Source: Candidatus Micrarchaeota archaeon (GTDB taxonomy: Archaea; Micrarchaeota; Micrarchaeia; Anstonellales; Bilamarchaeaceae). From it: a DNA stretch of 64,000 bases. This document shows, piece after piece, positions 5,466 through 47,237 of this stretch. The stretch spans positions 1,582 through 65,581 of the forward strand of contig JBDRLQ010000023.1 in assembly GCA_043812915.1 (NCBI GenBank), read 5' to 3'. Both the position numbers and the translations under genes were made by a program. Each line of letters begins with the position of its first letter. Position 1 is the stretch's first letter. The notes under the pieces are model-generated. The model did not search any database and was not told the DNA's origin. It saw only the letters and a list, made by a program, of their open reading frames with translations.

Positions 5466-5551
5466 GCAGGGGTGACAGAGCCTGGTCAAATGTGCTAGGT
5501 TGAGGGCCTAGTCGGTTAGTCCGTGCAAGTGTTCGAATCACTTCCCCTGCA
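5466..5551 (+). tRNA. tRNA-Leu (anticodon GAG), long variable arm
   Basis: GCAGGGG...CTAGG TT-GAG-GG CCTAG TCGGTTAGTCCGTGC AAGTG TTCGAAT CACTT CCCCTGC A. Acceptor, anticodon and T arms pair perfectly, and the class II variable arm is present. Confidence 0.9.
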
Positions 5552-5595
5552 CTTTATTTTTATCCTGGAAAAGACTTAGCGTTCGCCATATCTCC

Positions 5596-20324: not shown

Positions 20325-20783
20325 ATGGAACTAGACGTTGTTGACAGGACTATTCTCTCTCATCTGAGGGCGGATTCTAAGACGCAGATTAAGGATATCG
20401 CAAAAGAGCTCAAGATGCATCCCAATACCCTTCTCCAGAGGGTGAGGAAACTGGAGAAGAACGGGATAATCAGGGGCTATATCACGGATATAAATTTCGG
20501 GGAGGCCGGCTACGACCTGCACCTGATAATCAGCATGAAAATCCGGAGCGGGAAGGCGGGTGACATGGAGCAGCTAAAAGACCTGCTGGCGATAAAGGAG
20601 TTCGAGGCAATCTACGCCGCCAGCGGGAACTGGGATGTAATTGCTCTGACCCGGGTGAAAAACCGCGCACACATGCTTGATGTCGTGCACAGGCTAGGGG
20701 AGCATGAAATAGTTGTGCAGACGAACACATCCATCATCCTGCACGAGTACAAGAGGCCGGCGCAGTACAATCCGTTCCTCTAA
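20325..20783 (+). CDS. Lrp/AsnC family transcriptional regulator
   Basis: MELDVVDRTILSHLRADSKTQIKDIAKELKMHPNTLLQRVRKLEKNGIIRGY (HTH) followed by a RAM-like C-domain. An SD-like GGCGGTG precedes the ATG at 20325. Confidence 0.85.
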   Translation: MELDVVDRTILSHLRADSKTQIKDIAKELKMHPNTLLQRVRKLEKNGIIRGYITDINFGEAGYDLHLIISMKIRSGKAGDMEQLKDLLAIKEFEAIYAASGNWDVIALTRVKNRAHMLDVVHRLGEHEIVVQTNTSIILHEYKRPAQYNPFL

Positions 20784-22264
20784 TCCTTTCTTCTTTTCCT
20801 GTATGCCTGCCCGCCCACCGAATGGAAGTCAGGATTCAGGATGATGTTTCCATTGCCATTCCTTGTGAACTTGTCTATAGGGTTCAGTACCACTTCCCCC
20901 TCTGGGACAAGGCCGTGGTCAGCGCACATCTCGTCACGCACCTTCCAGTCGAGGGGTCTTAGCGCCCTCTTTACTTCCTGCGCCACTTCCGCGGTCATGA
21001 ACGGGCTGTGGCTCACCTTCATGGGGGTCTCATCAAGCACAATCAGCACCCCTCCATGGTTGCCTTTGGGGTCCGGCCCCTTAAGGGCGCTGGCAACCTT
21101 CCTTATCGCAGCCTCAGGATCCGCCACCCAGTTGAGGAAATAGATCATCGTCGCCATATCAAGCTGTCCGTCCCTCCCGTTTCCTGTAGGGTCTCCCAAG
21201 GCATCGCCCATCTCAAGGGCCAGAAAGTCCGCCTGGAACAATGTATGCAGCATTACTTCTTCAGGGCTGATTGTGCGGCCTGCGAATTCCGCTCCCATAT
21301 CAGCGAGCTTTCTGGACATCTCATCCTTGTATGTGCCAAGCCTTTTCCTCCCCCGGACAAGCAGGAACGGCGTCATGTCAACCCCGAAAAGCTCATTGGG
21401 CTCGCACTTCCCATTCTTCTTCATGTCTGCCAGGAATGACGGGAATCCGACATCCTCCATGAATAGCTTGAGTACGGGGCAGCTTCCGCAGCCGACATCC
21501 ATTATCCTTCGCACCGAGCCTGGATACCTGAGCATCAGCTCCAGCGCCACATTGAATATCGATTTGTAATGCCCTGTTATGCGCTGGTGCTCGTCGAACC
21601 TGTATGCGAACAGCGCCATCGCGTTGGCAATCTGGTTGAGCTGCTCTTCCGAGACTACCTTCAGCTTGCCATCCACGAAATTCACGATAAGCCCGTCCGG
21701 GTGCTCCTCCCGGCTCAGAAGCTCCCCTGATGGGGGATTCGGCAGCTTGCTCCGGCTTTCCATCCTGGCGCACAACTCATCCGGCTTCGCATCCATTATC
21801 TCACTGCGGAATACTCCTATGCCGCCAGCGGCATCAATGGTGTCAAAGGGGCCAAGATATCCCTCGGTGAGTGCCTCGTCTATACTGACCTCGCGCCCCG
21901 CAAGCTTCGAAGGCGCATCATCACCGATAACGACATGCACGGGGATGTCCTTTCCGCCCTTCACACGGCCAATCATCTCTCCCGGATTGAAGATGTCGTA
22001 GGCTTCGGGCCCCAGGATTACAACTGCCTCTTCGGCATTGGCTATCTGCGCCGCAGCGTTCTCTGCCCTGTCGTATGATGAGCAGACGTACCGCTCATCA
22101 TCAACGCCCCTGAGCTTCTTATCCAGCTCCCGATCGCAGCCAATCGCGAAAATCCTGACAACTCCTGACCTCGGTCCGGCGATGACGCTGGGCCTGTCCC
22201 TCCTCTTTATTGGCCCTTCAGGTTTTGCCGCCTGAGGACTAGAAATTATCTGTGTCCCTCCCAT
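20780..22264 (-). CDS. class I SAM-dependent methyltransferase with N-terminal receiver-like (pseudo-receiver) domain, paralog 1
   Basis: Motif I is IMDVGCGSCP. Also ..FQADFLALEM.., ..MIYFLNWVADPEAAIRKVASAL.., ..GGVLIVLDE... N-terminal alternating beta/alpha pattern (VRIFAIGCD...AVVILGPE...VHVVIGDD). TTTATATT box lies about 27 nt upstream of the ATG (leaderless). Confidence 0.65.
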   Translation of the reverse strand: MGGTQIISSPQAAKPEGPIKRRDRPSVIAGPRSGVVRIFAIGCDRELDKKLRGVDDERYVCSSYDRAENAAAQIANAEEAVVILGPEAYDIFNPGEMIGRVKGGKDIPVHVVIGDDAPSKLAGREVSIDEALTEGYLGPFDTIDAAGGIGVFRSEIMDAKPDELCARMESRSKLPNPPSGELLSREEHPDGLIVNFVDGKLKVVSEEQLNQIANAMALFAYRFDEHQRITGHYKSIFNVALELMLRYPGSVRRIMDVGCGSCPVLKLFMEDVGFPSFLADMKKNGKCEPNELFGVDMTPFLLVRGRKRLGTYKDEMSRKLADMGAEFAGRTISPEEVMLHTLFQADFLALEMGDALGDPTGNGRDGQLDMATMIYFLNWVADPEAAIRKVASALKGPDPKGNHGGVLIVLDETPMKVSHSPFMTAEVAQEVKRALRPLDWKVRDEMCADHGLVPEGEVVLNPIDKFTRNGNGNIILNPDFHSVGGQAYRKRRKD

Positions 22265-22339
22265 CAGAAATTGATGTGTGCCATAAGGAATATAAAGGCA
22301 CTATAAATGAAAAAAAGTGATTCTAAGAAAGCAATGCAA

Positions 22340-22759
22340 TCAGTTCTGCGCCGGAGGTTCGCTCTCTTTCTTCTTGGCATCCTTATCTGCGAACCATTCT
22401 GCAATCACGCGCGGCTGGCACTCCTTACACATCCCATGCGTGCGGATTTTCTTCTTGAGGCCCAACCCCTCGACTATTGCCTGCGGGACCTGCTTGCTGG
22501 TCTGCCGGTAGACGAACGTGTTCCCTCCCGGGTGATAGCAGCAGAGCAGGTAAACCTTCCCCAGTTCCTCATCTGTCTGCAGGGGCGCATGTTCCTTCTT
22601 TTTGGCAAACTCCTCCCTCCTGATTTCCGAGGCACTGCTCTTGGTTGTCAGCGGGAATCTGAGCTTTGTCCTGTCAGAGCCGAATCGGCTGGTCCAGACG
22701 CTTGGCTGAGCCCGGAGAACTCCTGCCCGTCTCTTCATCAGCCTTGTTCCGTTATCCAT
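22340..22759 (-). CDS. small Cys-knuckle zinc-ribbon-like protein P2 (CCYH...THGMCKEC)
   Basis: GAGGTGG SD lies 6 nt upstream of the ATG at 22759; the alternative ATG 22774 overlaps the upstream stop as ATGA. Motif is YLLCCYHPGGNTFVYRQTSKQVPQAIVEGLGLKKKIRTHGMCKECQ. Paralogous to P1 and P3. Confidence 0.5.
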   Translation of the reverse strand: MDNGTRLMKRRAGVLRAQPSVWTSRFGSDRTKLRFPLTTKSSASEIRREEFAKKKEHAPLQTDEELGKVYLLCCYHPGGNTFVYRQTSKQVPQAIVEGLGLKKKIRTHGMCKECQPRVIAEWFADKDAKKKESEPPAQN

Positions 22760-22770
22760 ATTCTTCCACC

Positions 22771-23049
22771 TCATTTTCTCGGCTTTTCCTCGAGCACTTC
22801 CTCGGATTTCCATCTTTTGCTCTCAACGCACGGCGACCATATGCCATCACTATTCACTCCTTTCAATCCCAGGGAATCAATCTCCTTTTCCGTGAGCTTC
22901 CGGCCGGTGTTCTTTTCCACCAGCGCCTTTCCGCCTGGATGCCATGCGCAGAGGGTGATATCTTTCCGAAGGTGGGCCGGCACTATGACAGTGTCATTCT
23001 TGGGCGCAATTGCCTCTGGCTGCCTGGAAATCTTCTTCTCCTGATTCAC
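22771..23049 (-). CDS. small protein P1, degenerate paralog of P2 (CAWH knuckle kept, second CxxC lost)
   Basis: ITLCAWHPGGKALVEKNTGRKLTEKEIDSLGLKGVNSDGIWSPC aligns residue-for-residue with P2. GTG start at 23049. Its stop codon lies inside the SD of P2. Confidence 0.45.
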   Translation of the reverse strand: MNQEKKISRQPEAIAPKNDTVIVPAHLRKDITLCAWHPGGKALVEKNTGRKLTEKEIDSLGLKGVNSDGIWSPCVESKRWKSEEVLEEKPRK

Positions 23050-23136
23050 TTTGGTCGCCTCTATATTCCAAAAATCTGTTGGAAATGTTTTATAAATTGT
23101 TTGATAGGCAATGTATCTTCGTGATAGAGGGATTTT

Positions 23137-23682
23137 TTGAGAAAACTTACTATTTCAGGAAGATTGCTGAAAGAGGCTATAGCGGAGCAGCAGCTGGAGA
23201 ATGGAAGGATAATCGTGCGGGCAAGGCGTCTTCCACTCCTAAAGGCTGGCTATGATGTGCTTTTCGAGGATGGGCCCCGGAGGGCGAGGGCCGAGGGCGA
23301 TTTCCTTTCAGTGATGCAGTGGGTTCGCAAGCACAGGCTAGATGATGTCGGGGACCTGGTATGGATGGCCGGCACCGCGCTCAAGGATGTCAGGCACCAT
23401 TCCGATTCATGGTTTAGCAAAAATGAGATGCTGGTGCTCTCAGCACTCGTACACAACGAACTGACCGTAAAGGGGCTGGCCATGGTTACTGGACTAAGTC
23501 CAAGGGCCGCGGAAAAAGCCCTGGGCTCATTAATAGAATGCGACACCGCTGAGGAAGGCAGAAAGACCAGCACAGGAAGGGGCGTCTTCAGGCTCACGGA
23601 GGATGGGAGGGAATTCACAGACCGCTTCCTGACAGATGCCGGATTCTTCAGCATGCAGGAGCGGATGAAGGACCGCTATTAG
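23137..23682 (+). CDS. winged-helix (MarR/TrmB-like) DNA-binding protein
   Basis: ..NEMLVLSALVHNELTVKGLAMVTGLSPRAAEKALGSLIECDTAEE..GVFRLTEDGREF.. has an HTH plus wing pattern. TTG start with GAGGGA upstream. Divergent from the P1-P2 genes. Confidence 0.5.
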   Translation: MRKLTISGRLLKEAIAEQQLENGRIIVRARRLPLLKAGYDVLFEDGPRRARAEGDFLSVMQWVRKHRLDDVGDLVWMAGTALKDVRHHSDSWFSKNEMLVLSALVHNELTVKGLAMVTGLSPRAAEKALGSLIECDTAEEGRKTSTGRGVFRLTEDGREFTDRFLTDAGFFSMQERMKDRY

Positions 23683-24362
23683 ACAAGGCCCTTCAAAAGG
23701 CCAATTAGGTCCTCGAATTTCTCAATCTCAAAATCAGCTTTTGTAATTCCCCTCTTGTTCCACAATCCGTATTTTGCAAGGCACGTGTGCATGCCAACTT
23801 CCTTGGCTCCCTTTATGTCCCGGTCCGGGTCATCGCCGACAAAAAGGCAGGCCGGGGCCAGCAGCCCAAGCCTCTGGAGCGCAATCTGGAAAGGCGTCGG
23901 GTTGGGCTTCCTCTCAAGGGTCTCATCAAGGGTGACAACCATGTCGAATTCATCCGCGAGGCCGGTCAGCACCAGGCGCTGCCATGCCTTGTTCCTGGGC
24001 GCGTCGGTGATTATCCCGAGCTTGTACCTTTCCCTGAGCTTCTCCAGAGTCGGCTTCACCATCGGGTAGGGCTTTATGACCTCGAACTTCTTCTGGAGGT
24101 AGGCAAGAATCGCGGCCTGCTGTATCCTTTCAGCCTTGTTGACTTCCAGGCCGAAAGGGGAAACCACATCGAAGAATGTCTTCTGGTATTCTATCCCCTT
24201 CTCATCATAGACAGAGAAAATCTTCCCGTATGCCTGCACCTCCGTTACCGGCAGGCCGTTCTTCACCATGGCAGAGGCCGCGGCCTTGGCGGTCTCCACC
24301 TTGAATCTCAGGAAGTTAATGAGCGTGTTGTCCAGGTCGAAGAGAATGGCTTTGATTGGCAT
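23679..24362 (-). CDS. HAD-superfamily hydrolase (subfamily IA)
   Basis: Motif I FDLDNTL, motif II GIITDA, motif IV FVGDDPDRDIKGA. ATG 24362 (MPIKAILFDLDN). Confidence 0.8.
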   Translation of the reverse strand: MPIKAILFDLDNTLINFLRFKVETAKAAASAMVKNGLPVTEVQAYGKIFSVYDEKGIEYQKTFFDVVSPFGLEVNKAERIQQAAILAYLQKKFEVIKPYPMVKPTLEKLRERYKLGIITDAPRNKAWQRLVLTGLADEFDMVVTLDETLERKPNPTPFQIALQRLGLLAPACLFVGDDPDRDIKGAKEVGMHTCLAKYGLWNKRGITKADFEIEKFEDLIGLLKGLV

Positions 24363-24412
24363 CGGGTATTCATCCCAGAGAATGTAATTAATCCTTCGCA
24401 ATCCAGAAAAAA

Positions 24413-24811
24413 TCAATAGAAGAAGCGAAGCAGGATTTTGTAGGATAGCAGCAGGACTATCAGCAGCGCGCATATCAGGTAGCTCAGGAACATGTAGTAT
24501 GGCATGGTTATCGGGCTGATCCCATCAACTATCATCAGGACGAATGAAATGAGGATGAGCGCAAGGAACGTTATCCTCATCGCCTTGGCGCTCACATATT
24601 CCATCCTCTCGTCAACGACCTTCTTCTTCGCAACAATCTTCCGAAGAAGGACTATTACCAGGGTCATGAATCCGATGTACATCAGCCAGTTCCCAACAGA
24701 GTCGAACAGGAAATCCGTGCGTCCGACTCCAAGAATGTTCAACGCCAGTCCCAGCACGATGGCTATCAGGCCAAATCCAAGCTTCAGCATATTTCTAGCA
24801 GGCTCATCCAT
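24413..24811 (-). CDS. small membrane protein partnered with XRE regulator
   Basis: 132 aa with 4 TM segments, 9 nt downstream of the XRE gene. This gene pairing is common in prokaryotes. Confidence 0.5.
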   Translation of the reverse strand: MDEPARNMLKLGFGLIAIVLGLALNILGVGRTDFLFDSVGNWLMYIGFMTLVIVLLRKIVAKKKVVDERMEYVSAKAMRITFLALILISFVLMIVDGISPITMPYYMFLSYLICALLIVLLLSYKILLRFFY

Positions 24812-24820
24812 TTCTCCACC

Positions 24821-25018
24821 TCATACTCCGAAAATGCCTTCTACACTGGTTCCGAATGCCTTGGCTATCAGAAGCGCGAGCTGCAGGGAGGGGACATACT
24901 TCCCGCTCTCTATGGAGATTATCGTCTGGCGCGTTACTCCCAGCTTCTGCGCAAGCGCCTCCTGGGTCATCCCCTCTTTCTCCCGGCATTCCCGCAGCCT
25001 GTTTTTCGAAAGTTTCAT
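24821..25018 (-). CDS. XRE-family helix-turn-helix transcriptional regulator
   Basis: [63 protein letters not shown] is a canonical Cro/C1 HTH. Confidence 0.8.
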
Positions 25019-25114
25019 TCCGGACACCGATGTAAAGCATACTATACGTTAAGCATGCTTAACATTTAAAAAGCTGCCTTTTGTTAGGCATTGCCGCAGC
25101 AAGAAAAAAGAAAA

Positions 25115-25498
25115 TCACTTCGCGTCCTCATCGGTTTCCCAAAGCGCGAAGGGATTGCCCTCGGTGTCCTGGCAGCAGATGAAGTACCCGTGGCCAGGGA
25201 CCGCGGTCTTCCCGAAAATCCTCTTGCCGCCAAGCTCCTCCACCTTCTTCACTGCCTTATCTACGGAAGGAACGCTGATATAATTGGTCGGCCCGTGCCC
25301 TTCGCACTGCTTCTTCATTATCCCACCGCAGACACTCTCCTTTCCCTTGTCATCCTTGGTGGTGAAGTACCAGTAATCTCCGCACGCCCCTCCGGTGGGC
25401 TTCATCTTCTCCATCTTCCATCCAAACAGGGATTCATAGAACTTCCTTGCCCTGTCCGTGTCTTCTGCAGGTATCTCAAAATGCACAATTGTAGCCAT
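25115..25498 (-). CDS. VOC (glyoxalase/bleomycin-resistance/dioxygenase) family protein
   Basis: MATIVHFEIPAEDTDRARKFYESLFGWKM...GHGYFICCQDTEGNPFALWE is the typical single-domain VOC pattern. Confidence 0.8.
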   Translation of the reverse strand: MATIVHFEIPAEDTDRARKFYESLFGWKMEKMKPTGGACGDYWYFTTKDDKGKESVCGGIMKKQCEGHGPTNYISVPSVDKAVKKVEELGGKRIFGKTAVPGHGYFICCQDTEGNPFALWETDEDAK

Positions 25499-25571
25499 GC
25501 TTTTCACCAAGAAATAGACCAGCAAATCCATTTATCTGCTTTTTCTGGCAGCGCATTTCCGCGGAAAGCAA

Positions 25572-27218
25572 TCAGATGCCCTTGCCAAAGTCAACCAGCG
25601 TCCAGCCTCCTATGCTGCCTCTCCTCCTGAACACGCGCCCTTCCATCGTGTGCGGCTCCTTGAATTCCGACCTGTCCCTCTTCCTGCTGATTTTGTCGAT
25701 TTCAAGGACTTCCCGCACTTCTTTGCCCTTGGCGTCCAGTTCCGGCTTGAATCCGCTGGATAGAATCATCTCTACATACTGGCCGAACGGGATGTGATAT
25801 ACTGCGCTTGCGATTGATTGGGCGTCGTCCTTATCCAGCCCGCCAGGGCTCACCCGAAGGTGCGGCTCTTCAACAATTATCAGCCTGCCACCCGGCTTTA
25901 TCAGCTCCGCAGCTTTCCGGACTGCGGCTTCTTTGTCTGCCAGCCAGTAGATGACGTAGGACATCAGCATTGTGTCAATATCCTGAAAGTTGAATCCCCC
26001 CAGATATTCGGGACGCAGGGATGTACCGGAAAAATCAATTTCCTTTAGGGCCTCCATGGTAAGCTCCAGAAAATCAGCCTGCTTGAAACACATCCCGAGC
26101 CTTCCCCTTATCGAATCCTCGTTTTCCGCAAGAAGACCGTTAAACTCCGAATGGGCCTGGGAAAGCATCTCCTCAAGATAATCTATCGATAGTATGAGCA
26201 TCGGTTCCTCTCGCAGTCCCAGCCTGAATTTGGAGACAACCGCATGCTCAAGGAACTGCCTCATCGGGTAGCCCGTCCCGCATGCAACATCCGCGATTGT
26301 ATTGCCGAAGAAATCCCCCAGCCGGTAATACATCACAAGCATGGCTGCGAAGTGACCGGTCATCAGCATGTGCTGGTTGTATCTGTATGAGAACTCAATC
26401 ATTGTCCTCCTGGCCTCAGCCGCAGCATCGGCATCCATATTCCACGAATCCCTTGTCCTGGCCGCGCAGACCATCGGGTCGAAGAACGTCCTTGCCCTGG
26501 GCGTGCTGGGATGCTGCTTAAGGCTCCTCTGAATCCTTTGCAGAAGTATCTCCGCGCTGGCGCAATCATTTTCAAGCACTTCTTCCGCGGTCAGCCCGCT
26601 CTGGAAAAAAGTTCCTGGCCCGCGTTCCTTAGGATTATAAAGAACTATCGTCCTTGTCCTCTCGTCGAATCTCATTCCGGAGAGGAGCTTTAGGACCTTT
26701 GCCTGCTCCACGCCCCTCCCATCCATCTTCATATCCAGTCCGACAACGACAACTCTTGGTGGCTGGGGGTTCTTTGCGAAGCTGCCCATCAGGGACTCCA
26801 CGGTGTTGGCGGATTCCCTTCTCAGGCCAAGGAGGCCGAGCCCTCCTTTAATCTGCTCCCACTCGTTGCGGGAATGTGAAATGTTGCAGCCGACAAAGAG
26901 CACCCGCGCCCTGCCTTCAGCACCCTCGGGCTGAGCGCGTTCCTGTTCCTGGAACAAATGGTACCTGCCAGGCCCATTGCCCTCATCCTTTATTACCTGA
27001 TTCTTGTCGCTGCTTTCCGCAAGCTTCCTGAAAATATCCTGTATTGGAGGGGGTTTTCTAAAAGTCGCCGAGCTCCGGACCCTCACTTTTTCATGGTAAT
27101 GCCTAGGAAATCCACCATCGAGGCGGGGGCTGAGCTTTAGCCGTTCAGACTTCTGTGTCTCTCTTCCGGGCCTTTCAGAAAACTCTGCTTTTCCAGCCCT
27201 GCCTCTAAACGAAGACAT
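25572..27218 (-). CDS. class I SAM-dependent methyltransferase with N-terminal receiver-like domain, paralog 2
   Basis: Motif I is IADVACGTGYP. Also ..FKQADFLELTM.., ..MSYVIYWLADKEAAVRKAAELIKPGGRLIIVEE... Receiver-like VLFVGCN...VVVVGLDMKMDGRG...IVLYN. TTTTTAAA box lies about 25 nt upstream of the ATG (leaderless). Collinear similarity to 20780..22264. Confidence 0.65.
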   Translation of the reverse strand: MSSFRGRAGKAEFSERPGRETQKSERLKLSPRLDGGFPRHYHEKVRVRSSATFRKPPPIQDIFRKLAESSDKNQVIKDEGNGPGRYHLFQEQERAQPEGAEGRARVLFVGCNISHSRNEWEQIKGGLGLLGLRRESANTVESLMGSFAKNPQPPRVVVVGLDMKMDGRGVEQAKVLKLLSGMRFDERTRTIVLYNPKERGPGTFFQSGLTAEEVLENDCASAEILLQRIQRSLKQHPSTPRARTFFDPMVCAARTRDSWNMDADAAAEARRTMIEFSYRYNQHMLMTGHFAAMLVMYYRLGDFFGNTIADVACGTGYPMRQFLEHAVVSKFRLGLREEPMLILSIDYLEEMLSQAHSEFNGLLAENEDSIRGRLGMCFKQADFLELTMEALKEIDFSGTSLRPEYLGGFNFQDIDTMLMSYVIYWLADKEAAVRKAAELIKPGGRLIIVEEPHLRVSPGGLDKDDAQSIASAVYHIPFGQYVEMILSSGFKPELDAKGKEVREVLEIDKISRKRDRSEFKEPHTMEGRVFRRRGSIGGWTLVDFGKGI

Positions 27219-27411
27219 ACATCGAAATTAGCAAAGTTCAGGTTTAAAAAGACTTGCCGGACCCTGGAAATATTCTATTTTACCACGTATTCCAAAGGAG
27301 GCCTGAAAACGACTGTGATGGGACAGAACAAGAAAAAAACAATACGTTAGCTACTCACAAACCAAGGGTTTCAAAAAGGCGTAAATTATGAAAGCTGCTT
27401 GACCCGGGTAG

Positions 27412-27771
27412 CTATTTCCTGAGGGATTCTGCCATCGGCTTCCTGAGCCCGCCCTCAATCTCAGTTTTCCGCTTCAAGATCTCCGCCCTCATCTCTGCAG
27501 CGCACTTGTCGCACATGGAATTCGTCACTCCGTCCGGGTCGGTCGGGAGGCCCTCTTTCATTATGGTCTCGATTGGGACAAGGGCTCCAGTGTCTCTGAA
27601 CCTGATCCTAGGTGTTGGAGACACTAAGCGGTTTTGCGAGAATTTCCCCTCGTCCTTGAATTCTCTGGAATCGCACCAGTTGCAGACTACATATCTGCTG
27701 GGCAGCGATTTAGCTGGCGCCTCCATCCGCTCTCCCAAAGTCCTCATCTTCAAAGGTTTTGCTGCGTTCAT
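27412..27771 (-). CDS. small Cys-knuckle zinc-ribbon-like protein P3 (CNWC...CDKC)
   Basis: YVVCNWCDSREF...IETIMKEGLPTDPDGVTNSMCDKCAAEM has the same knuckle architecture as P1/P2. GTGAT SD lies 5 nt upstream of the ATG at 27771. Sits directly upstream of methyltransferase paralog 2. Confidence 0.5.
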   Translation of the reverse strand: MNAAKPLKMRTLGERMEAPAKSLPSRYVVCNWCDSREFKDEGKFSQNRLVSPTPRIRFRDTGALVPIETIMKEGLPTDPDGVTNSMCDKCAAEMRAEILKRKTEIEGGLRKPMAESLRK

Positions 27772-28928: not shown

Positions 28929-30056
28929 ATGTCTATTAGTGCAAGCTTGGCAAAAGAGTGCGTTCCCGGCCCCAATGGGCTCGGAGCTGCCGCCAAAAGG
29001 CCCGTAGCCCGCTGCAAAGGCGGAGAGGCGCTCCGATGCCGCAAGGGCCGCAAAAATACCAAACCCCCCCTCCTGCCGATTCTTGATTCTAACCATCCCC
29101 CGGCGAATCTTCGGGACCCTGGACTGCTCAAAGAAATTCTGGCAACCGCCGATGCTGATTTACACTCTCTTCCCCTTTCCAAAATCAGGTCGGTGCATAT
29201 GAAGCATCCATTGTTCACTGGCACCCTGCTAACCCTCATGCACAAGGTCTTCGGGATATCTCATACTGCGGAGAGCCTCCTCAGCCATAAGGAAGACGCA
29301 TACATGTTCCTGTGGTATGTCTATGAAGATGAGCGAATCGCATTCGATGGCAGCCTTACCATGGGCGAGATGGAAAACGGTTTCGTTGGCAAAGCCTCCA
29401 CCTCCAGGCGGCCCGACAGGGACTATGAGCTGCTGAGCCTGGCGATGAATGTCCACAGGGCCCTGGAGACCCTAACTTCCAGGGAGCAGATGGTGCTTGA
29501 AGGCAGGTTTGGCGGTGGCGCTACGCTGCAAGAGCTGGCAGATGAATTTCACATAACCCCCGAGAGAGTGCGGCAGATTGAGTCAAAGGCCTTGAGGAAG
29601 ATGAGGATGCGGGAGCGGGCCGCCCTCATGGAGCCATTCACCGAGGACTTCCAGGAAGCCCCGTTCTACCAGGGCCATGCATATTCATATACACCGGTTC
29701 TTATCAGGCGCTACATCCCTGAAATTGTGGCGGTCTCGGAATTTGCACTAAACGGCCCACCCGAAGGAGAAGCGCTCCTTTCGCTTTCGCTGGAGATATC
29801 CGCGCTCTGGCGCAAGCTCCATGAAGAGATGCCTGAAATCAACCTCGGGTTCCTTGAAAACTGCGGCTTTATCGGAATTTCAGAGGAAATGGGAAAAATC
29901 CGGAAACCTGGGCTGAGTGACGTGAAGGGATATCTCCTCCGCTCCATCATGAGGCGCTATCCTGGATACGCAATTGCCCGGCTGGTTGTGAAGCATGAAG
30001 TTGGCCTTAGGGATGAGCATTCCCAGACTGACCTTGCCAGCTGGGAAGAGTATTAA
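28929..30056 (+). CDS. protein containing a sigma-70 region 4 (4.2 HTH)-like domain; N-terminal boundary uncertain
   Basis: LTSREQMVLEGRFGGGATLQELADEFHITPERVRQIESKALRKMR closely matches the bacterial sigma-70 region 4 consensus (..RER.VL.LRFG....TLEE.G..F.VTRERIRQIE.KAL.KLR). No region 2 motif was seen. The first ~90 codons are GC-rich and open on both strands; ATG 29200 (MKHPLF) is an alternative start. Confidence 0.55.
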   Translation: MSISASLAKECVPGPNGLGAAAKRPVARCKGGEALRCRKGRKNTKPPLLPILDSNHPPANLRDPGLLKEILATADADLHSLPLSKIRSVHMKHPLFTGTLLTLMHKVFGISHTAESLLSHKEDAYMFLWYVYEDERIAFDGSLTMGEMENGFVGKASTSRRPDRDYELLSLAMNVHRALETLTSREQMVLEGRFGGGATLQELADEFHITPERVRQIESKALRKMRMRERAALMEPFTEDFQEAPFYQGHAYSYTPVLIRRYIPEIVAVSEFALNGPPEGEALLSLSLEISALWRKLHEEMPEINLGFLENCGFIGISEEMGKIRKPGLSDVKGYLLRSIMRRYPGYAIARLVVKHEVGLRDEHSQTDLASWEEY

Positions 30057-44064: not shown

Positions 44065-46096
44065 GCTAAAAACTGGAAGTAATTCTTCAAGACGAAAGTC
44101 TTGATGAGTGAGAACCATCTTAGCAGAGGTTAATTTGCTGATACAAACCACATAGTGGATGGCTGGGCTGAGGCCCGCACGGCCACGCGGCAAGCGGCGA
44201 AACGCCCTGGGTAGACGCACGCAGTCTTTGATCCAGGGATCTGGCGGTGCACAGTAATGTGCAGTAACCCACCGAAATGAAGCATCTTAGTAGGTGGAGG
44301 AAGAGAAACCAATTGGGATCCGGATAGTAACAGCGAGTGAAATTCGGAGAGATCAAGCTGAATTCCATTGCGGTAACGCAGTGGTAGATGTGGCGGGGAG
44401 TATCCTTTCTGTGAGCAGAAGTCGGCTGGAATGCCGTACCATAGCGAGTAATAGTCTCGTATGCGAAGCAGTGGAGGAGTGATCCAATGAAGAGTAGCGT
44501 ACCCCGGTTAGGGTGCGTGAATATGGGTGCATCAACATCCAAATCTAAACATGAGGCCTTAGACCGATAGCGAAATAGTAGCGCGAGCGAATGCTGAAAA
44601 GCACCGGGGGACCGGTGTGAAAAGAACCTGAAATTATGTGGTGACATTATGGTATGGCACGAAAGGGATTAGGACAATGGAAGCGACTGTTGGTAACGGC
44701 AGGAGCGACATTGTTTAACCGGTGTCATATCTTCCTTCTCGAAGCAAGAACCAAGGAGTTAATGGATGTGGCAAGACGAAAGTCGAAGCGAAAGCAAGCG
44801 CCCGCAGCAGGCTTGTCCTGTCAGGGGCATCGTGGTAACTCGCGATCAGTCACATTCATCAGACCCGAAGCCATAGTGATCTACGCCTGAACAGGGCGAA
44901 GTCAACCTGACGGTTGATGGAGGCCCGCAACTAGTGGTGGTATATTCCCCTTAGGTGATTTGGGTGTAGGGGTGATAGTCCTGTCGAACATGGCGATAGC
45001 GGGTTCCCTTCGAAATGTGTCTTAGCACAGCGTCTCCTGAGAATTATATAGCGGTAGAGCACCGATTAGGCGGAGCGGCCCCGAGAGGGGTCACCATCTT
45101 CTCAAACTCCGAATGCTGTATATTCTAAGACGGAGGCAGTGGGGATTGCGGAGTAAGTCCGTAGTCCCTTACGGGAAAGACCGTACGCAAGGCTAAGGAC
45201 CCTAAATGCTGGTTAAGTGTTAATCATCAAGGAGTCTCTACTCAAAGACAACCGGGAGGTAGGCTCAGAAGCAGCCACCCTCTAAACAACGCGTAATAGC
45301 GGACCGGTCGAGAGTGCAGATTCTTAAAATTCACGGGGCTAAACCAGCTTCCGATACCTTGCCAGAGCCAAAAGCTCATGTGTAGGGGGGCGAACGGGTT
45401 GCGCCGAAGCGCGGTGGTAACATCGTGTGGAGCGGCCTGTTATGAACATCTTGGTGTTAGTAGCAGCATATCCGGATGAGAATTCCGGACACCTCATAGA
45501 GCAAGGATTCCTCAGCCACGTTCTTCAGCTGAGGGTTAGGCGATCCTAAGGGCCATGGTAAAACCTGAAGCCCGAAATCAGGGAATCCGGTTAATATTCC
45601 GGACCTATATGGGTAGGCGCGGTAACGCAAGCCTACTTCTTACGCCTTTGGATATGTGAAGCGGCTTCGGCCGTCTGATAGAAGTAACTCCGTGGAGTCT
45701 CATTGTGAGGAGAAGCGGATGAAATCTTTAGGGGAAACTTCATTGAGTCCGGGGGTCCATGAAAAGTGAAGTAGGAACGATCCCATATAATCGTACCCAG
45801 AACCAGTACAGGTGCTCTAGCTGAAAAGGCTAAGGTGTGACAGGATAACCCAAGCAAGGGAACTCGGCAAGTTAGCCCTGTACCTTTGGTAGAAGGGGTG
45901 CCTTCGCATGCGTAATGTGGAGGTCGCAGTGACAAGTGGAGTGCGACTGTTTACCAAAAACACAGGTCATCGCAGAGCGGAAACGCTGAGTATGATGGCT
46001 GACGTCTGCTCACTGCCAGTACCTGAACACCGGTTTCAACCGGGAGAAGGGCTGGTAAAGAGCGGGGGTAACTCTGACCCTCTTAAGGTAGCGTAA

Positions 46097-46224
46097 ACAA
46101 GGCCAAGAATCATGTTTACATGAGGATTGCCTTGAGTTTGCGGTAATTGTTGCCAAAAGCAAGTCGTTAAAGTAGTGAGGAAATCCTCGATCTATATCCT
46201 TAACCGGATATGGCCTTGACGTAA
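46097..46224 (+). other. archaeal bulge-helix-bulge intron (128 nt, no ORF) in 23S domain IV
   Basis: Removing it restores the conserved GGTAGCGTAATACCTCGCCGCTTAATTGGCGGCTTGCATGAATG. Outer helix is AGGTA/TACCT, central 4-bp helix GCGT/ACGT, bulges AAA and AA(T), inner helix CAAGGCC/GGCCTTG. The boundary is ambiguous by up to 5 nt because CGTAA is repeated. Confidence 0.8.
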
Positions 46225-46750
46225 TACCTCGCCGCTTAATTGGCGGCTTGCATGAATGACGTAACGTCGCTCCAACTGTCCCTGCTTGGGACCTGGTGAA
46301 CTCACTGCCCGGTGAAGATGCCGGGGACTTCCAGAGGGAAACGAAGACTCCATGGAGCTTTACTATAGCCTGATGTTGTGATATTGAGTTGGCTACACAG
46401 TGTAAGTGGGAGCCGTTAAGCTGTGCCTTCCGGGGTACAGATAGGCAAAAGTGTAACACCACTTAGTTAGTTCGATATTGCTTACCCGCAAGGGGACAGC
46501 GTCAGGTGGATAGTTTGGCTGGGGCGGTACGCCCTCGAAAAGGAAACAAGGGCGCCCAATGTTCTGCTCATGCCGGTCAGAAATCGGCAGTAGAGGGTTA
46601 AAGACAAATGCAGGGCTGACTGTATTTCTCATAGTATGGAATGCAGAGACGAAAGTCGGGCTTAACGAACCTTGAAATCCCTTTGATGAGGATTCAAGCT
46701 GTCAGACAAGCTACCCTGGAGGTAACAGGCTCGTCGCGGGCGAGAGTACA

Positions 46751-46800
46751 CTGCGATGTAGTCAAAACGTTTCTTTTGAACTAGGACTACTTCGCGTGCG
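46751..46800 (+). other. 50-nt insertion in the 23S domain V H89 apical region: mini-intron or expansion hairpin
   Basis: GAGAGTACA[50 nt]TATCGAC interrupts the conserved GAGAGT.CATATCGAC string. The insert forms a ~10-bp stem (GCGA-GTAGTC / GACTAC-TCGC with one U-U mismatch). No canonical BHB could be drawn. Confidence 0.5.
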
Positions 46801-47237
46801 TATCGACCCCGCGGTTTGGTACATCGCTGTCGGCTTGGGATATCCTGGCCGTGTAGGAGCGGCCAAGGGTTGGGTTGTTCATCCATCAAAATCCCACATG
46901 AGCTGGGTTCAGTACGTCGCGAGACAGTACGGTAGTATCTCCTGGAAGTGTTGTCTCTTGAAAGGAAGGATCCTTGAGTACGAGAGGAACGGGGATCCGG
47001 CGCCTCTAGTCTACCGGTTGTGAATTGCATTGCCGGGCAGCCACGCGCCAACCGATAAGACCTGAAAGCATCTAAGGTCGAAGCGGCTCTTAAAACGAGG
47101 AGACATACCGCAGATAACAGATCTGTTTGATAGGACCATGGTGTAAGACGCTAGGTTCGCCGAGCGTTTCAGCCAGTGGTTACTAACGGTTTACTTCAAA
47201 GAATTCAACCTTTGCGGATGGTCCTTCTGGTTTTTGT

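Follow-up and report, generated by a model that had tools for sequence, protein, structure and literature searches.

A rare pseudo-receiver methyltransferase family of Micrarchaeota and its convergent Lrp/AsnC partner

A stretch of 64,000 nucleotides (nt) from a metagenome-assembled genome (MAG) of a Candidatus Micrarchaeota archaeon (GCA_043812915.1, contig JBDRLQ010000023.1, positions 1,582 to 65,581; hereafter the window) carries two related methyltransferase genes, each with an additional N-terminal domain, and raises the question of what such fusions do and with which partner they act. The genes, both on the reverse strand, are paralog 1 (20780..22264, 494 amino acids [aa]) and paralog 2 (25572..27218, 548 aa). 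Both encode a predicted receiver-like domain without the acceptor aspartate (pseudo-receiver) followed by a class I S-adenosylmethionine (SAM) methyltransferase; paralog 1 is the enzyme half of a cassette with an Lrp/AsnC regulator gene, whereas paralog 2 is of a type without an Lrp gene directly downstream. The family thus assembled is new, is built from known parts and has a conserved, convergent Lrp/AsnC partner. Taken together, the evidence favours, with moderate confidence, a rare family of pseudo-receiver methyltransferases that act on small metabolites and are encoded in Lrp-regulated cassettes.

The two genes lie on one shared MAG contig in the NCBI annotation, which labels paralog 2 'class I SAM-dependent methyltransferase', and exact or near-exact copies of both proteins are encoded on a 78-kb contig of Candidatus Micrarchaeota MAG GCA_043826765.1. 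An earlier note on this DNA regarded the two open reading frames (ORFs) as collinear paralogs, and this holds: the coordinates are confirmed, the C-terminal halves share 27% identity over ~297 columns by BLASTP (E 4e-18), and all of the shared strings quoted in that note fall inside the alignment. The N-terminal halves of paralogs 1 and 2 do not align to each other by BLASTP. A leave-out hidden Markov model (HMM) of 17 N-domains from other genomes matches residues 102-237 of paralog 2 (E 1e-16) and residues 35-90 of paralog 1 (E 6e-5); thus, the N-domains are homologous. The nearest relatives of paralog 2 (P0003, P0004 and P0005) are 34-37% identical to it, and the nearest relative of paralog 1 (P0006) is 30% identical over residues 6-468, its full length. 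Each paralog is therefore closer to genes of other genomes than to the copy in its own genome, which indicates that the duplication is old rather than recent.

The C-terminal domain is a class I SAM methyltransferase, as had been proposed, and the assignment draws on Pfam, Foldseek, a profile of the core and the SAM motifs. In paralog 2 the core spans aa 263-535 (25614..26432, reverse strand; Pfam, AlphaFold2 [AF2] and Foldseek), while in paralog 1 a linker hairpin and the core together occupy approximately aa 205-491 (20792..21652, reverse strand), as delimited by BLASTP of residues 215-491 to paralog 2 and by the family alignment. Paralog 2 scores above the Pfam cut-offs of Methyltransf_31 (30.7 bits, cut-off 27), Methyltransf_11 (25.2 bits, cut-off 21.2) and Ubie_methyltran; paralog 1 reaches 26.6 bits with Methyltransf_23, 0.4 below the cut-off of 27, and Pfam class I methyltransferase models match 16-20 of the 26 family members. 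Single-sequence AF2 prediction of paralog 2 gave a predicted local distance difference test (pLDDT) score of 32; the usable model came from a run with the 26-sequence family alignment (mean pLDDT 76.9), in which the methyltransferase core exceeds 90 over most of its length. The best Foldseek matches of this model are PMT-2 (a phosphoethanolamine N-methyltransferase), NNMT, Coq5, toxoflavin methyltransferase and Hvo_0019 of Haloferax (E ~1e-10, 10-17% identity). Of 610 PDB matches at E<=1e-3, 50 were listed, and 49 of these are class I methyltransferases or close derivatives. Phmmer searches of the single window proteins against PDB sequences returned no significant match, whereas the core profile finds PEAMT (8.9e-10), then JHAMT and UbiG.

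The catalytic scaffold is conserved in both copies. The Gly-rich loop of SAM motif I (D/E-x-G-x-G-x-G) is represented by 'ADVACGTG' in paralog 2 and 'MDVGCGSC' in paralog 1; in the family alignment, with paralog 2 numbering, D310 is present in 24 of the 26 members and C313 in 25, and the G314 column is invariant. The acidic residue at the end of strand 2 (D346) is found in 26/26 members and the motif III residue D382 in 23/26, both being kept in both paralogs. Invariant or nearly invariant core positions, which both window copies retain, include M273, F276, H283, H289, D310, D346, D382, W425, E450/E451 and H523, and the family carries a signature of its own that begins with T-M-x2-F-x3-Y-D-x-H-M-x2-T-G-H-Y and continues with S-Y-x-I-x-W-x2-D-K, I-E-E and I-D-x2-H-x-M-x-G-x-V-F-x-K. 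As all of the SAM-binding motifs are intact in both copies, both paralogs are probably active enzymes. No curated NCBIfam family reaches its cut-off for either enzyme. In a search for defence systems, paralog 2 matches the PADLOC mad2 model (1.5e-8) in the SAM-binding region only, and paralog 1 with eight neighbouring proteins yielded generic helix-turn-helix (HTH) matches only; a MADS defence system was rejected, the mad2 match being generic and the other genes of the system not being encountered.

The N-terminal domain had been described as CheY/receiver-type without the residues of phosphotransfer, a description borne out by the AF2 topology, the family profile and the leave-out HMM. In paralog 2 the domain covers aa 102-237 (26508..26915, reverse strand) and is predicted by AF2 to adopt a (beta-alpha)5 topology, with strands at residues 105-109, 133-137, 156-159, 189-194 and 214-216 alternating with helices. 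The pLDDT of this region, in 10-residue blocks, is mostly 72-90, with dips to 61 (residues 201-210) and 65 (residues 231-240). The whole-model Foldseek search is dominated by the methyltransferase domain, and the fold of the N-domain was judged from the AF2 topology. In paralog 1 the predicted pseudo-receiver spans approximately aa 33-176 (21737..22168, reverse strand); its first half is clear to the family HMM, with 'IGCD' and 'VVILGPE' following the family consensus, and its second half is divergent with insertions. When compared to the PDB, the N-domain profile matches natural proteins that are almost all receivers, aligned over the whole domain. PhoB scores best of these (3.8e-4), followed by FrzS (entries 2gkg and 2nt3), CheY and KdpE, with more than 40 receivers besides PhoB at E<1; two AI-designed TIM barrels outscore PhoB by way of repeated short beta-alpha units. 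The Pfam Response_reg model (PF00072, cut-off 30.2 bits) gives 29.9 bits for the N-domain of the L015 member and 26.2 bits for that of P0007.

The residues of phosphotransfer are replaced throughout the family. In the alignment to PhoB, G110 and C111 of paralog 2 fall on the acidic pair E9/D10, and G160 falls on the acceptor D53. The acceptor-Asp column is Gly in 25/25 members, the acidic-pair columns are Gly in 20/24 and Cys in 19/23, and the columns of PhoB T83 and K105 are unconserved, with 'K-P' kept only in a P0007-like subgroup. The strings GCD and GCN are present, as reported earlier, where a receiver would have its acidic pair. Canonical phosphorylation is thus predicted to be impossible, and the N-domain is, judging from the alignments and the model, a degenerate receiver that has lost its phosphotransfer residues. 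This corresponds to the published definition of a pseudo-receiver, a domain that computation recognises as a receiver but that is without residues required for phosphotransfer (PMC12632262); in this family the recognition is at profile level or near the cut-off. Some relatives have two pseudo-receivers, and a short subfamily has none. Outside of the SAM loop two cysteines are conserved, one at the former metal-ligand position (19/23 members) and one in the linker motif 'P-x-I-C-E' (18/23). The linker of paralog 2 is a hairpin at aa 238-262 (26433..26507, reverse strand) that contains this motif (C251) by alignment and is modelled with low to moderate pLDDT.

Two other accounts of the N-domain are weighed against these data. 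One is that paralog 2 is still a phosphorylatable response regulator that uses Asp162 of its 'LDMKMDG' loop, which the earlier note took to be a retained phospho-acceptor region. The loop is present, and its form GLD-x2-(M/L)-DG, common to the window protein and its L009 orthologue, resembles the D-x3-P-x-MDG of true receivers. It is, however, a quirk of this lineage, as 'GLDMKMDG' is found again in the L009 orthologue alone and is missing from P0003, which is the next closest relative; the acceptor column is occupied by Gly160, with Asp162 two residues beyond the end of strand 3, the metal-binding pair is Gly-Cys, and the Thr and Lys positions are unconserved. Phosphorylation at Asp162 is thus scarcely credible. 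The 'ILGPE' of paralog 1, read earlier as the loss of this loop, is instead the family consensus. The other account, which sees in the N-domain the remnant of a second methyltransferase or Rossmann domain, on the model of the nematode and plant PMT-2/PEAMT enzymes, stems from the top Foldseek matches: two-domain PMT-2/PEAMT chains with alignments longer than 500 columns. These alignments have a template modelling (TM) score of 0.27-0.37 and a root-mean-square deviation of 17-19 A, so that only one domain superposes; the modelled N-domain has five strands rather than seven, its profile matches receivers and not methyltransferases, and one relative lies within 0.3 bits of the Response_reg cut-off. 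A vestigial methyltransferase domain is, therefore, very unlikely.

The family is very rare. Among 1.84 billion cluster representatives, an exhaustive HMMER scan with a profile built from both paralogs turned up 45 proteins at E<1e-3, of which 27 are at E<1e-10, while a word-indexed search of 5.8 billion proteins with either paralog or the 26-sequence alignment returned only the query itself. Ten representatives were checked; at 90% identity nine of them stand alone in their clusters and the other belongs to a two-member cluster, and the named representatives are labelled 'SAM-dependent methyltransferase' or 'UbiE'. Scanning one genome for each GTDB species with sequence patterns identified six loci, five of them in Micrarchaeota MAGs and the sixth in an unclassified 'archaeon' MAG, and a scan of metagenomes added eight further contigs; the patterns were derived from a 10-sequence sub-alignment and favour the paralog-2-like and P0007-like subgroups. 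So far, the family is known only from Micrarchaeota MAGs, from the unclassified 'archaeon' MAG and from metagenome contigs that bear no label. The pseudo-receiver methyltransferase architecture is covered by neither Pfam nor NCBIfam, and a literature search found no description of such a family or of its Lrp cassette; the earlier note likewise did not recognise the architecture as that of a described family. That note had proposed a search for the fusion and its neighbours in archaeal and metagenomic genomes; the fusion does recur, and the neighbour that is conserved with it is an Lrp/AsnC gene, not the small Cys protein genes.

The Lrp/AsnC (feast/famine) regulator of the window is encoded at 20325..20783 on the forward strand, convergent with paralog 1. 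It scores above the Pfam cut-offs of HTH_24 (42 bits, cut-off 21.9), HTH_AsnC-type (39.1 bits, cut-off 27) and AsnC_trans_reg (29.9 bits, cut-off 25), and matches the solved feast/famine regulatory proteins (FFRPs) FL11/PH1519, ST1022 and LrpA over its full length (E ~1e-15). The two coding regions share 4 nt at their 3' ends, where the stop codons overlap in CTAA. Across the family, a convergent Lrp/AsnC gene lies 3' of 23 of the 28 genes with a readable 3' flank, at a spacing of -14 to +84 nt; the pairing was found by all-against-all BLAST of the ORFs at the loci and was confirmed on further contigs by independent gene calls that carry Pfam labels. Pairing with Lrp extends to the short members without a receiver (293-318 aa), which retain the core motifs. 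The cassettes are often in tandem, with two or three per locus, and the pair occurs in at least four genomic contexts: beside SufBD (as in the window), beside UbiA and the L18e-L13-S9-RpoN genes, beside HSP70-GrpE-HSP20 and a small winged-helix gene (members with two pseudo-receivers), and adjoining a gene for a 1626-aa protein. The enzyme cores and their partner Lrps diverge in step (correlation of pairwise identities r = 0.69, Mantel p ~2e-4), which indicates that the cassette is passed on and duplicated whole. All 23 cassette Lrps (window, L003-L013, L018, L020, L022 and L025) end in Y-K-x-P-x-(D/E)-[FY]-N-P-[FLIY] just past the RAM domain, and the [FY]-N-P tail was not found in the three best-matching solved FFRPs.

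The five unpaired genes among the 28 are paralog 2, its 56%-identical orthologue in L010, P0003, P0004 and the L014 gene; at P0004 a transposase-like fragment is in the place of the Lrp. Paralog 2, the L010 orthologue and P0003 are of the paralog 2 type and reside on the same strand as, and a few kilobases upstream of, a gene of the paralog 1 type. The window, L009/L010 and L023+L024 share this layout but differ in the genes that separate the two enzymes; the convergent Lrp gene on the paralog-1-type member is evident in two of the three genomes (window and L010). Paralog 1 and the Lrp of 20325-20783 form a family cassette, and the two-paralog layout, with 3.3 kb between the genes in the window, is thus itself conserved. 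The end of L023 and the start of L024 (Logan contigs of SRR25213504) overlap by 29 nt inside asnA, and on joining the two contigs the paralog-2-type and paralog-1-type genes flank asnA. The occurrence of asnA beside a cassette of the AsnC family recalls the asnC-asnA pairing of E. coli.

Several other genes accompany the cassettes. At L020:9969-11384 a third, 471-aa methyltransferase type follows RpoN and is followed by a convergent Lrp gene; it has a family-like core and a second, C-terminal region that is O-methyltransferase-like. A P-loop protein of ~311-335 aa, similar to the HPr kinase C-terminal domain, is encoded at the edge of cassette arrays, where its gene and the first methyltransferase gene are often divergent (L003:4790-5785, L005:1811-2746, L008:2142-3083, L017:3957-4901 and L020:2660-3595), and is absent from the window; genes for arginase/agmatinase, or for agmatine deiminase and CN-hydrolase, lie near it. 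Between HSP70-GrpE-HSP20 and the methyltransferases with two pseudo-receivers is a winged-helix protein of 132-137 aa (L019:4544-4957, L022:2570-2968 and L025:1811-2212; 71-82% identical), which may be a heat-shock regulator.

The gene contexts bear on what the enzyme may methylate. A UbiE/MenG-like quinone or prenylated-lipid methyltransferase that works with a neighbouring UbiA prenyltransferase would account for the naming of two members as 'ubiquinone/menaquinone biosynthesis C-methylase UbiE' by JGI, for weak matches of Pfam Ubie_methyltran to 12/26 members, and for the presence of UbiA next to the cassettes of L003-L005, L007, L008, L018 and L020. This account is quite improbable: the NCBIfam UbiE/MenG models give about 19 bits over short fragments (18.7 against a cut-off of 158 for TIGR01934 and 19.3 against 216 for NF001244), Ubie_methyltran aligns to no more than ~40 residues of the window protein, UbiA is near neither window copy nor the HSP70-side cassettes, and a single biosynthetic step is a poor fit to loci that hold two to three paralogous cassettes, each including a regulator. 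UbiA also adjoins the ribosomal-protein genes, so the adjacency is probably plain synteny.

The same ribosomal neighbourhood can be read in terms of an RNA target. Cassettes flank L18e-L13-S9-RpoN in several genomes, and the N-tails of both paralogs and of many relatives are basic and disordered, with C-termini that are basic too; these ends could bind nucleic acid if the enzyme were a methyltransferase of rRNA or tRNA. The N-tail of paralog 2 (aa 1-101; 26916..27218, reverse strand) is basic and predicted to be disordered, with pLDDT <50 at residues 1-57 and 69-101, and similar basic N-tails are found in the L009 orthologue and P0003. CmoA/CmoB, Hen1 and cap guanine-N7 methyltransferase are among the PDB matches; these RNA enzymes are, however, weaker matches than the small-molecule ones, and no RNA-binding domain was detected in Pfam scans of the family. 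It would, moreover, be unusual for a housekeeping RNA methyltransferase to be multi-copy, to evolve fast or to have a ligand-sensing regulator for each copy. An RNA substrate is, accordingly, about as improbable as a quinone.

The close pairing with Lrp invites a further alternative, in which the enzyme is a protein methyltransferase that acts on its partner Lrp (or, in the window lineage, on the small Cys proteins) to form a methylation-based sensor-effector pair. The pairing is near one-to-one and survives duplication and relocation, the [FY]-N-P-[FLIY] tail of all 23 cassette Lrps could be a docking or acceptor site, and there are weak single-member matches to CheR (0.0013) and PrmA (0.0028), with the short L005 member matching CheR at 7.5e-5. 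By contrast, the best structural and profile matches are to small-molecule methyltransferases, paralog-2-type genes have no Lrp of their own, and conservation of the small Cys proteins does not extend to the family as a whole. A co-evolving interface is also argued against by the conservation of the two partners between close relatives. When the window is compared to L009/L010, the HAD hydrolase is 89% identical, the Lrp 84%, the glyoxalase 79% and paralog 2 55-56%, whereas the Lrp-paired enzyme is only 25% identical (window paralog 1 versus P0024, L010:2237-3655). The Lrp-paired enzyme has either evolved very fast or been swapped for another paralog with the regulator kept in place. Methylation of Lrp or of the small Cys proteins is, on these grounds, an unlikely function.

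The favoured reading, in which the family methylates small metabolites from Lrp-regulated cassettes, leads to a proposed mechanism. The enzyme would methylate a small polar metabolite, a proposal drawn from the resemblance of the fold and the active-site lid to those of small-molecule N-, O- and C-methyltransferases. The pseudo-receiver would serve as a phosphorylation-independent module for regulation or dimerisation, and it may be thiol-sensitive through the Cys of the former metal site and the Cys of the linker, by analogy with RitR. Transcription of the cassette would be set by the partner Lrp, whose RAM domain would sense either the substrate or product of the enzyme or an amino-acid-like ligand related to them, and the tail-to-tail overlap would allow the enzyme and Lrp genes to exert mutual antisense interference.

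A number of observations weigh against this reading or parts of it. For the pseudo-receiver, the window proteins themselves have no match to Pfam Response_reg, and the receiver homology draws on the family profile, the relatives and the predicted model; when the N-domain profile was aligned by hhalign to a single E. coli CheY sequence, a weak template, only the alpha3-beta4 region aligned, with negligible probability. The thiol switch would depend on just two conserved cysteines, and the linker Cys is absent from paralog 1. For the substrate, the closest structures are 10-17% identical to the enzyme and act on many different substrates. For the cassette, an Lrp that is 84% identical between relatives in which the paired enzyme is 25% identical is hard to square with tight co-adaptation of enzyme and regulator; the Lrp adjacency among closely related MAGs is partly inherited synteny; and a search for an operator or palindrome common to the promoters of paralog 1, paralog 2 and Lrp found only A/T runs.

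A bolder version, which is rather improbable, holds that the cassette is a signalling device of the Micrarchaeota's own, in which the degenerate receiver, by way of the Cys of the former metal site and the linker Cys, gates the methyltransferase according to redox state or a ligand, and the enzyme methylates its cognate Lrp or makes or destroys the effector of that Lrp. If this were true, methyl transfer would stand in for the phosphotransfer of two-component systems, and the overlap of the genes would add antisense cross-control.

Comparison to known systems sets the family apart from each of the systems it resembles. Pseudo-receivers such as FrzS, RitR and ShkA share with it a CheY-like (beta-alpha)5 domain that is seen by receiver profiles and lacks the phosphotransfer residues, and the conserved linker Cys recalls the redox-controlled dimerisation of RitR through a linker Cys (PMC12632262). 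Redox control via a linker Cys (RitR) and ligand binding are both on record for pseudo-receivers, and all described cases are bacterial or eukaryotic; none from archaea has been studied, although pseudo-receivers are an estimated 10-15% of archaeal receiver domains (PMC12632262). The family differs from those described in its invariant acceptor-site Gly, its Cys at the metal position and its SAM methyltransferase output. With the small-molecule methyltransferases (PDB 5wp5/4kri, juvenile-hormone acid O-methyltransferase, UbiG, Coq5, toxoflavin methyltransferase and Hvo_0019) the family has in common the Rossmann-type fold, SAM motifs I-III and an N-terminal helical lid with a 'Y-D' motif, yet it is only 10-17% identical to them and has signature motifs of its own. 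The partner Lrp has the HTH and RAM architecture of archaeal Lrps (FL11/PH1519, the ST1022 protein Grp, LrpA and LysM) but scores under every NCBIfam equivalog cut-off, carries its own [FY]-N-P-[FLIY] tail, and is encoded convergent with and end-to-end to the methyltransferase gene rather than divergent from a target operon. The likeness to CheB/CheR is conceptual, in that a receiver-type domain would control a methyl-group enzyme, and a few members weakly match the SAM domain of CheR. CheB, however, is a methylesterase with a true receiver, and CheR has no receiver and a distinct N-domain; the CheR matches are far under the cut-off, and no chemotaxis genes are near the family loci.

Both window genes appear to have ordinary promoters. 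The earlier note placed a TATA box before each ATG, and A/T octamers are indeed present at -32 to -25: TTTTTAAA before paralog 2 (27243..27250, reverse strand) and TTTATATT before paralog 1 (22289..22296, reverse strand), both identified from sequence and position statistics as TATA-like boxes 25-32 nt upstream of the ATG. In 19 of 54 window genes an all-A/T box starts at -36 to -28, and the A/T content is highest at -30 to -21; thus, the octamers before both paralogs follow the usual promoter geometry of the window. An A/T peak at -30 to -21 is as expected for leaderless archaeal transcripts. Scans for sigma-70 promoters and terminators gave background levels. The TATA-like box of paralog 1 is within an inverted repeat GTGCC-N14-GGCAC (22278-22301, reverse strand), whose 5-nt arms may be chance.

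Small Cys protein genes lie upstream of both paralogs on the reverse strand, as had been noted. A 119-aa protein with CxxC ... CxxC (27412..27771) precedes paralog 2, and two tandem ORFs precede paralog 1 (22340-22759/22813, with the NCBI start at 22759, and 22771-23049). The tandem proteins are homologous (E 7e-9), the 27412-27771 protein is marginally similar to them (E 1e-3), and this last protein matches no Pfam, NCBIfam or PADLOC family. Beyond the window, the 27412-27771 protein has a homologue in L009 alone (L009:2121-2543, 25% identity, E 7e-5), likewise upstream of the enzyme gene and separated from it by a glyoxalase gene; the paralog-1-type gene of L010 is preceded by a membrane protein gene and not by small Cys protein genes, and an HMM of the four small Cys proteins found nothing in the other 12 loci searched (L003-L008 and L010-L016). 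These proteins are thus lineage-specific neighbours outside of the family-level module. The earlier note held that the absence of a conserved linkage to the small proteins would count against it; that absence is what the loci reveal, and it affects the point of linkage only.

Elsewhere in the window, 28929-30056 (forward strand) encodes a protein with a Sigma70 region 4 domain of bacterial type (PF04545); its length is 285-375 aa according to the start chosen, and it is conserved in L009 (L009:1-1013, 42% identity). An archaeal large-subunit (23S) rRNA gene at 44129-47205 stands alone; Rfam detects no 16S or 5S gene in the 64 kb, and the rRNA genes therefore appear to be unlinked. ARAGORN predicts a tRNA-Leu(GAG) at 5466-5552, where the Rfam tRNA model is silent at its gathering score.

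The family provides a compact test case in which a dead receiver is carried on a readily assayed enzyme with a dedicated regulator gene adjacent to it. The labels 'UbiE' and 'class I SAM-dependent methyltransferase' hide what is a distinct, Micrarchaeota-restricted family, and analysis of the gene neighbourhoods shifts the candidate partner from the small Cys proteins to Lrp. The genomes of Micrarchaeota are very small; two to three cassettes per locus in such reduced genomes represent a large investment, which suggests a role in the sensing or metabolic adjustment of a symbiont.

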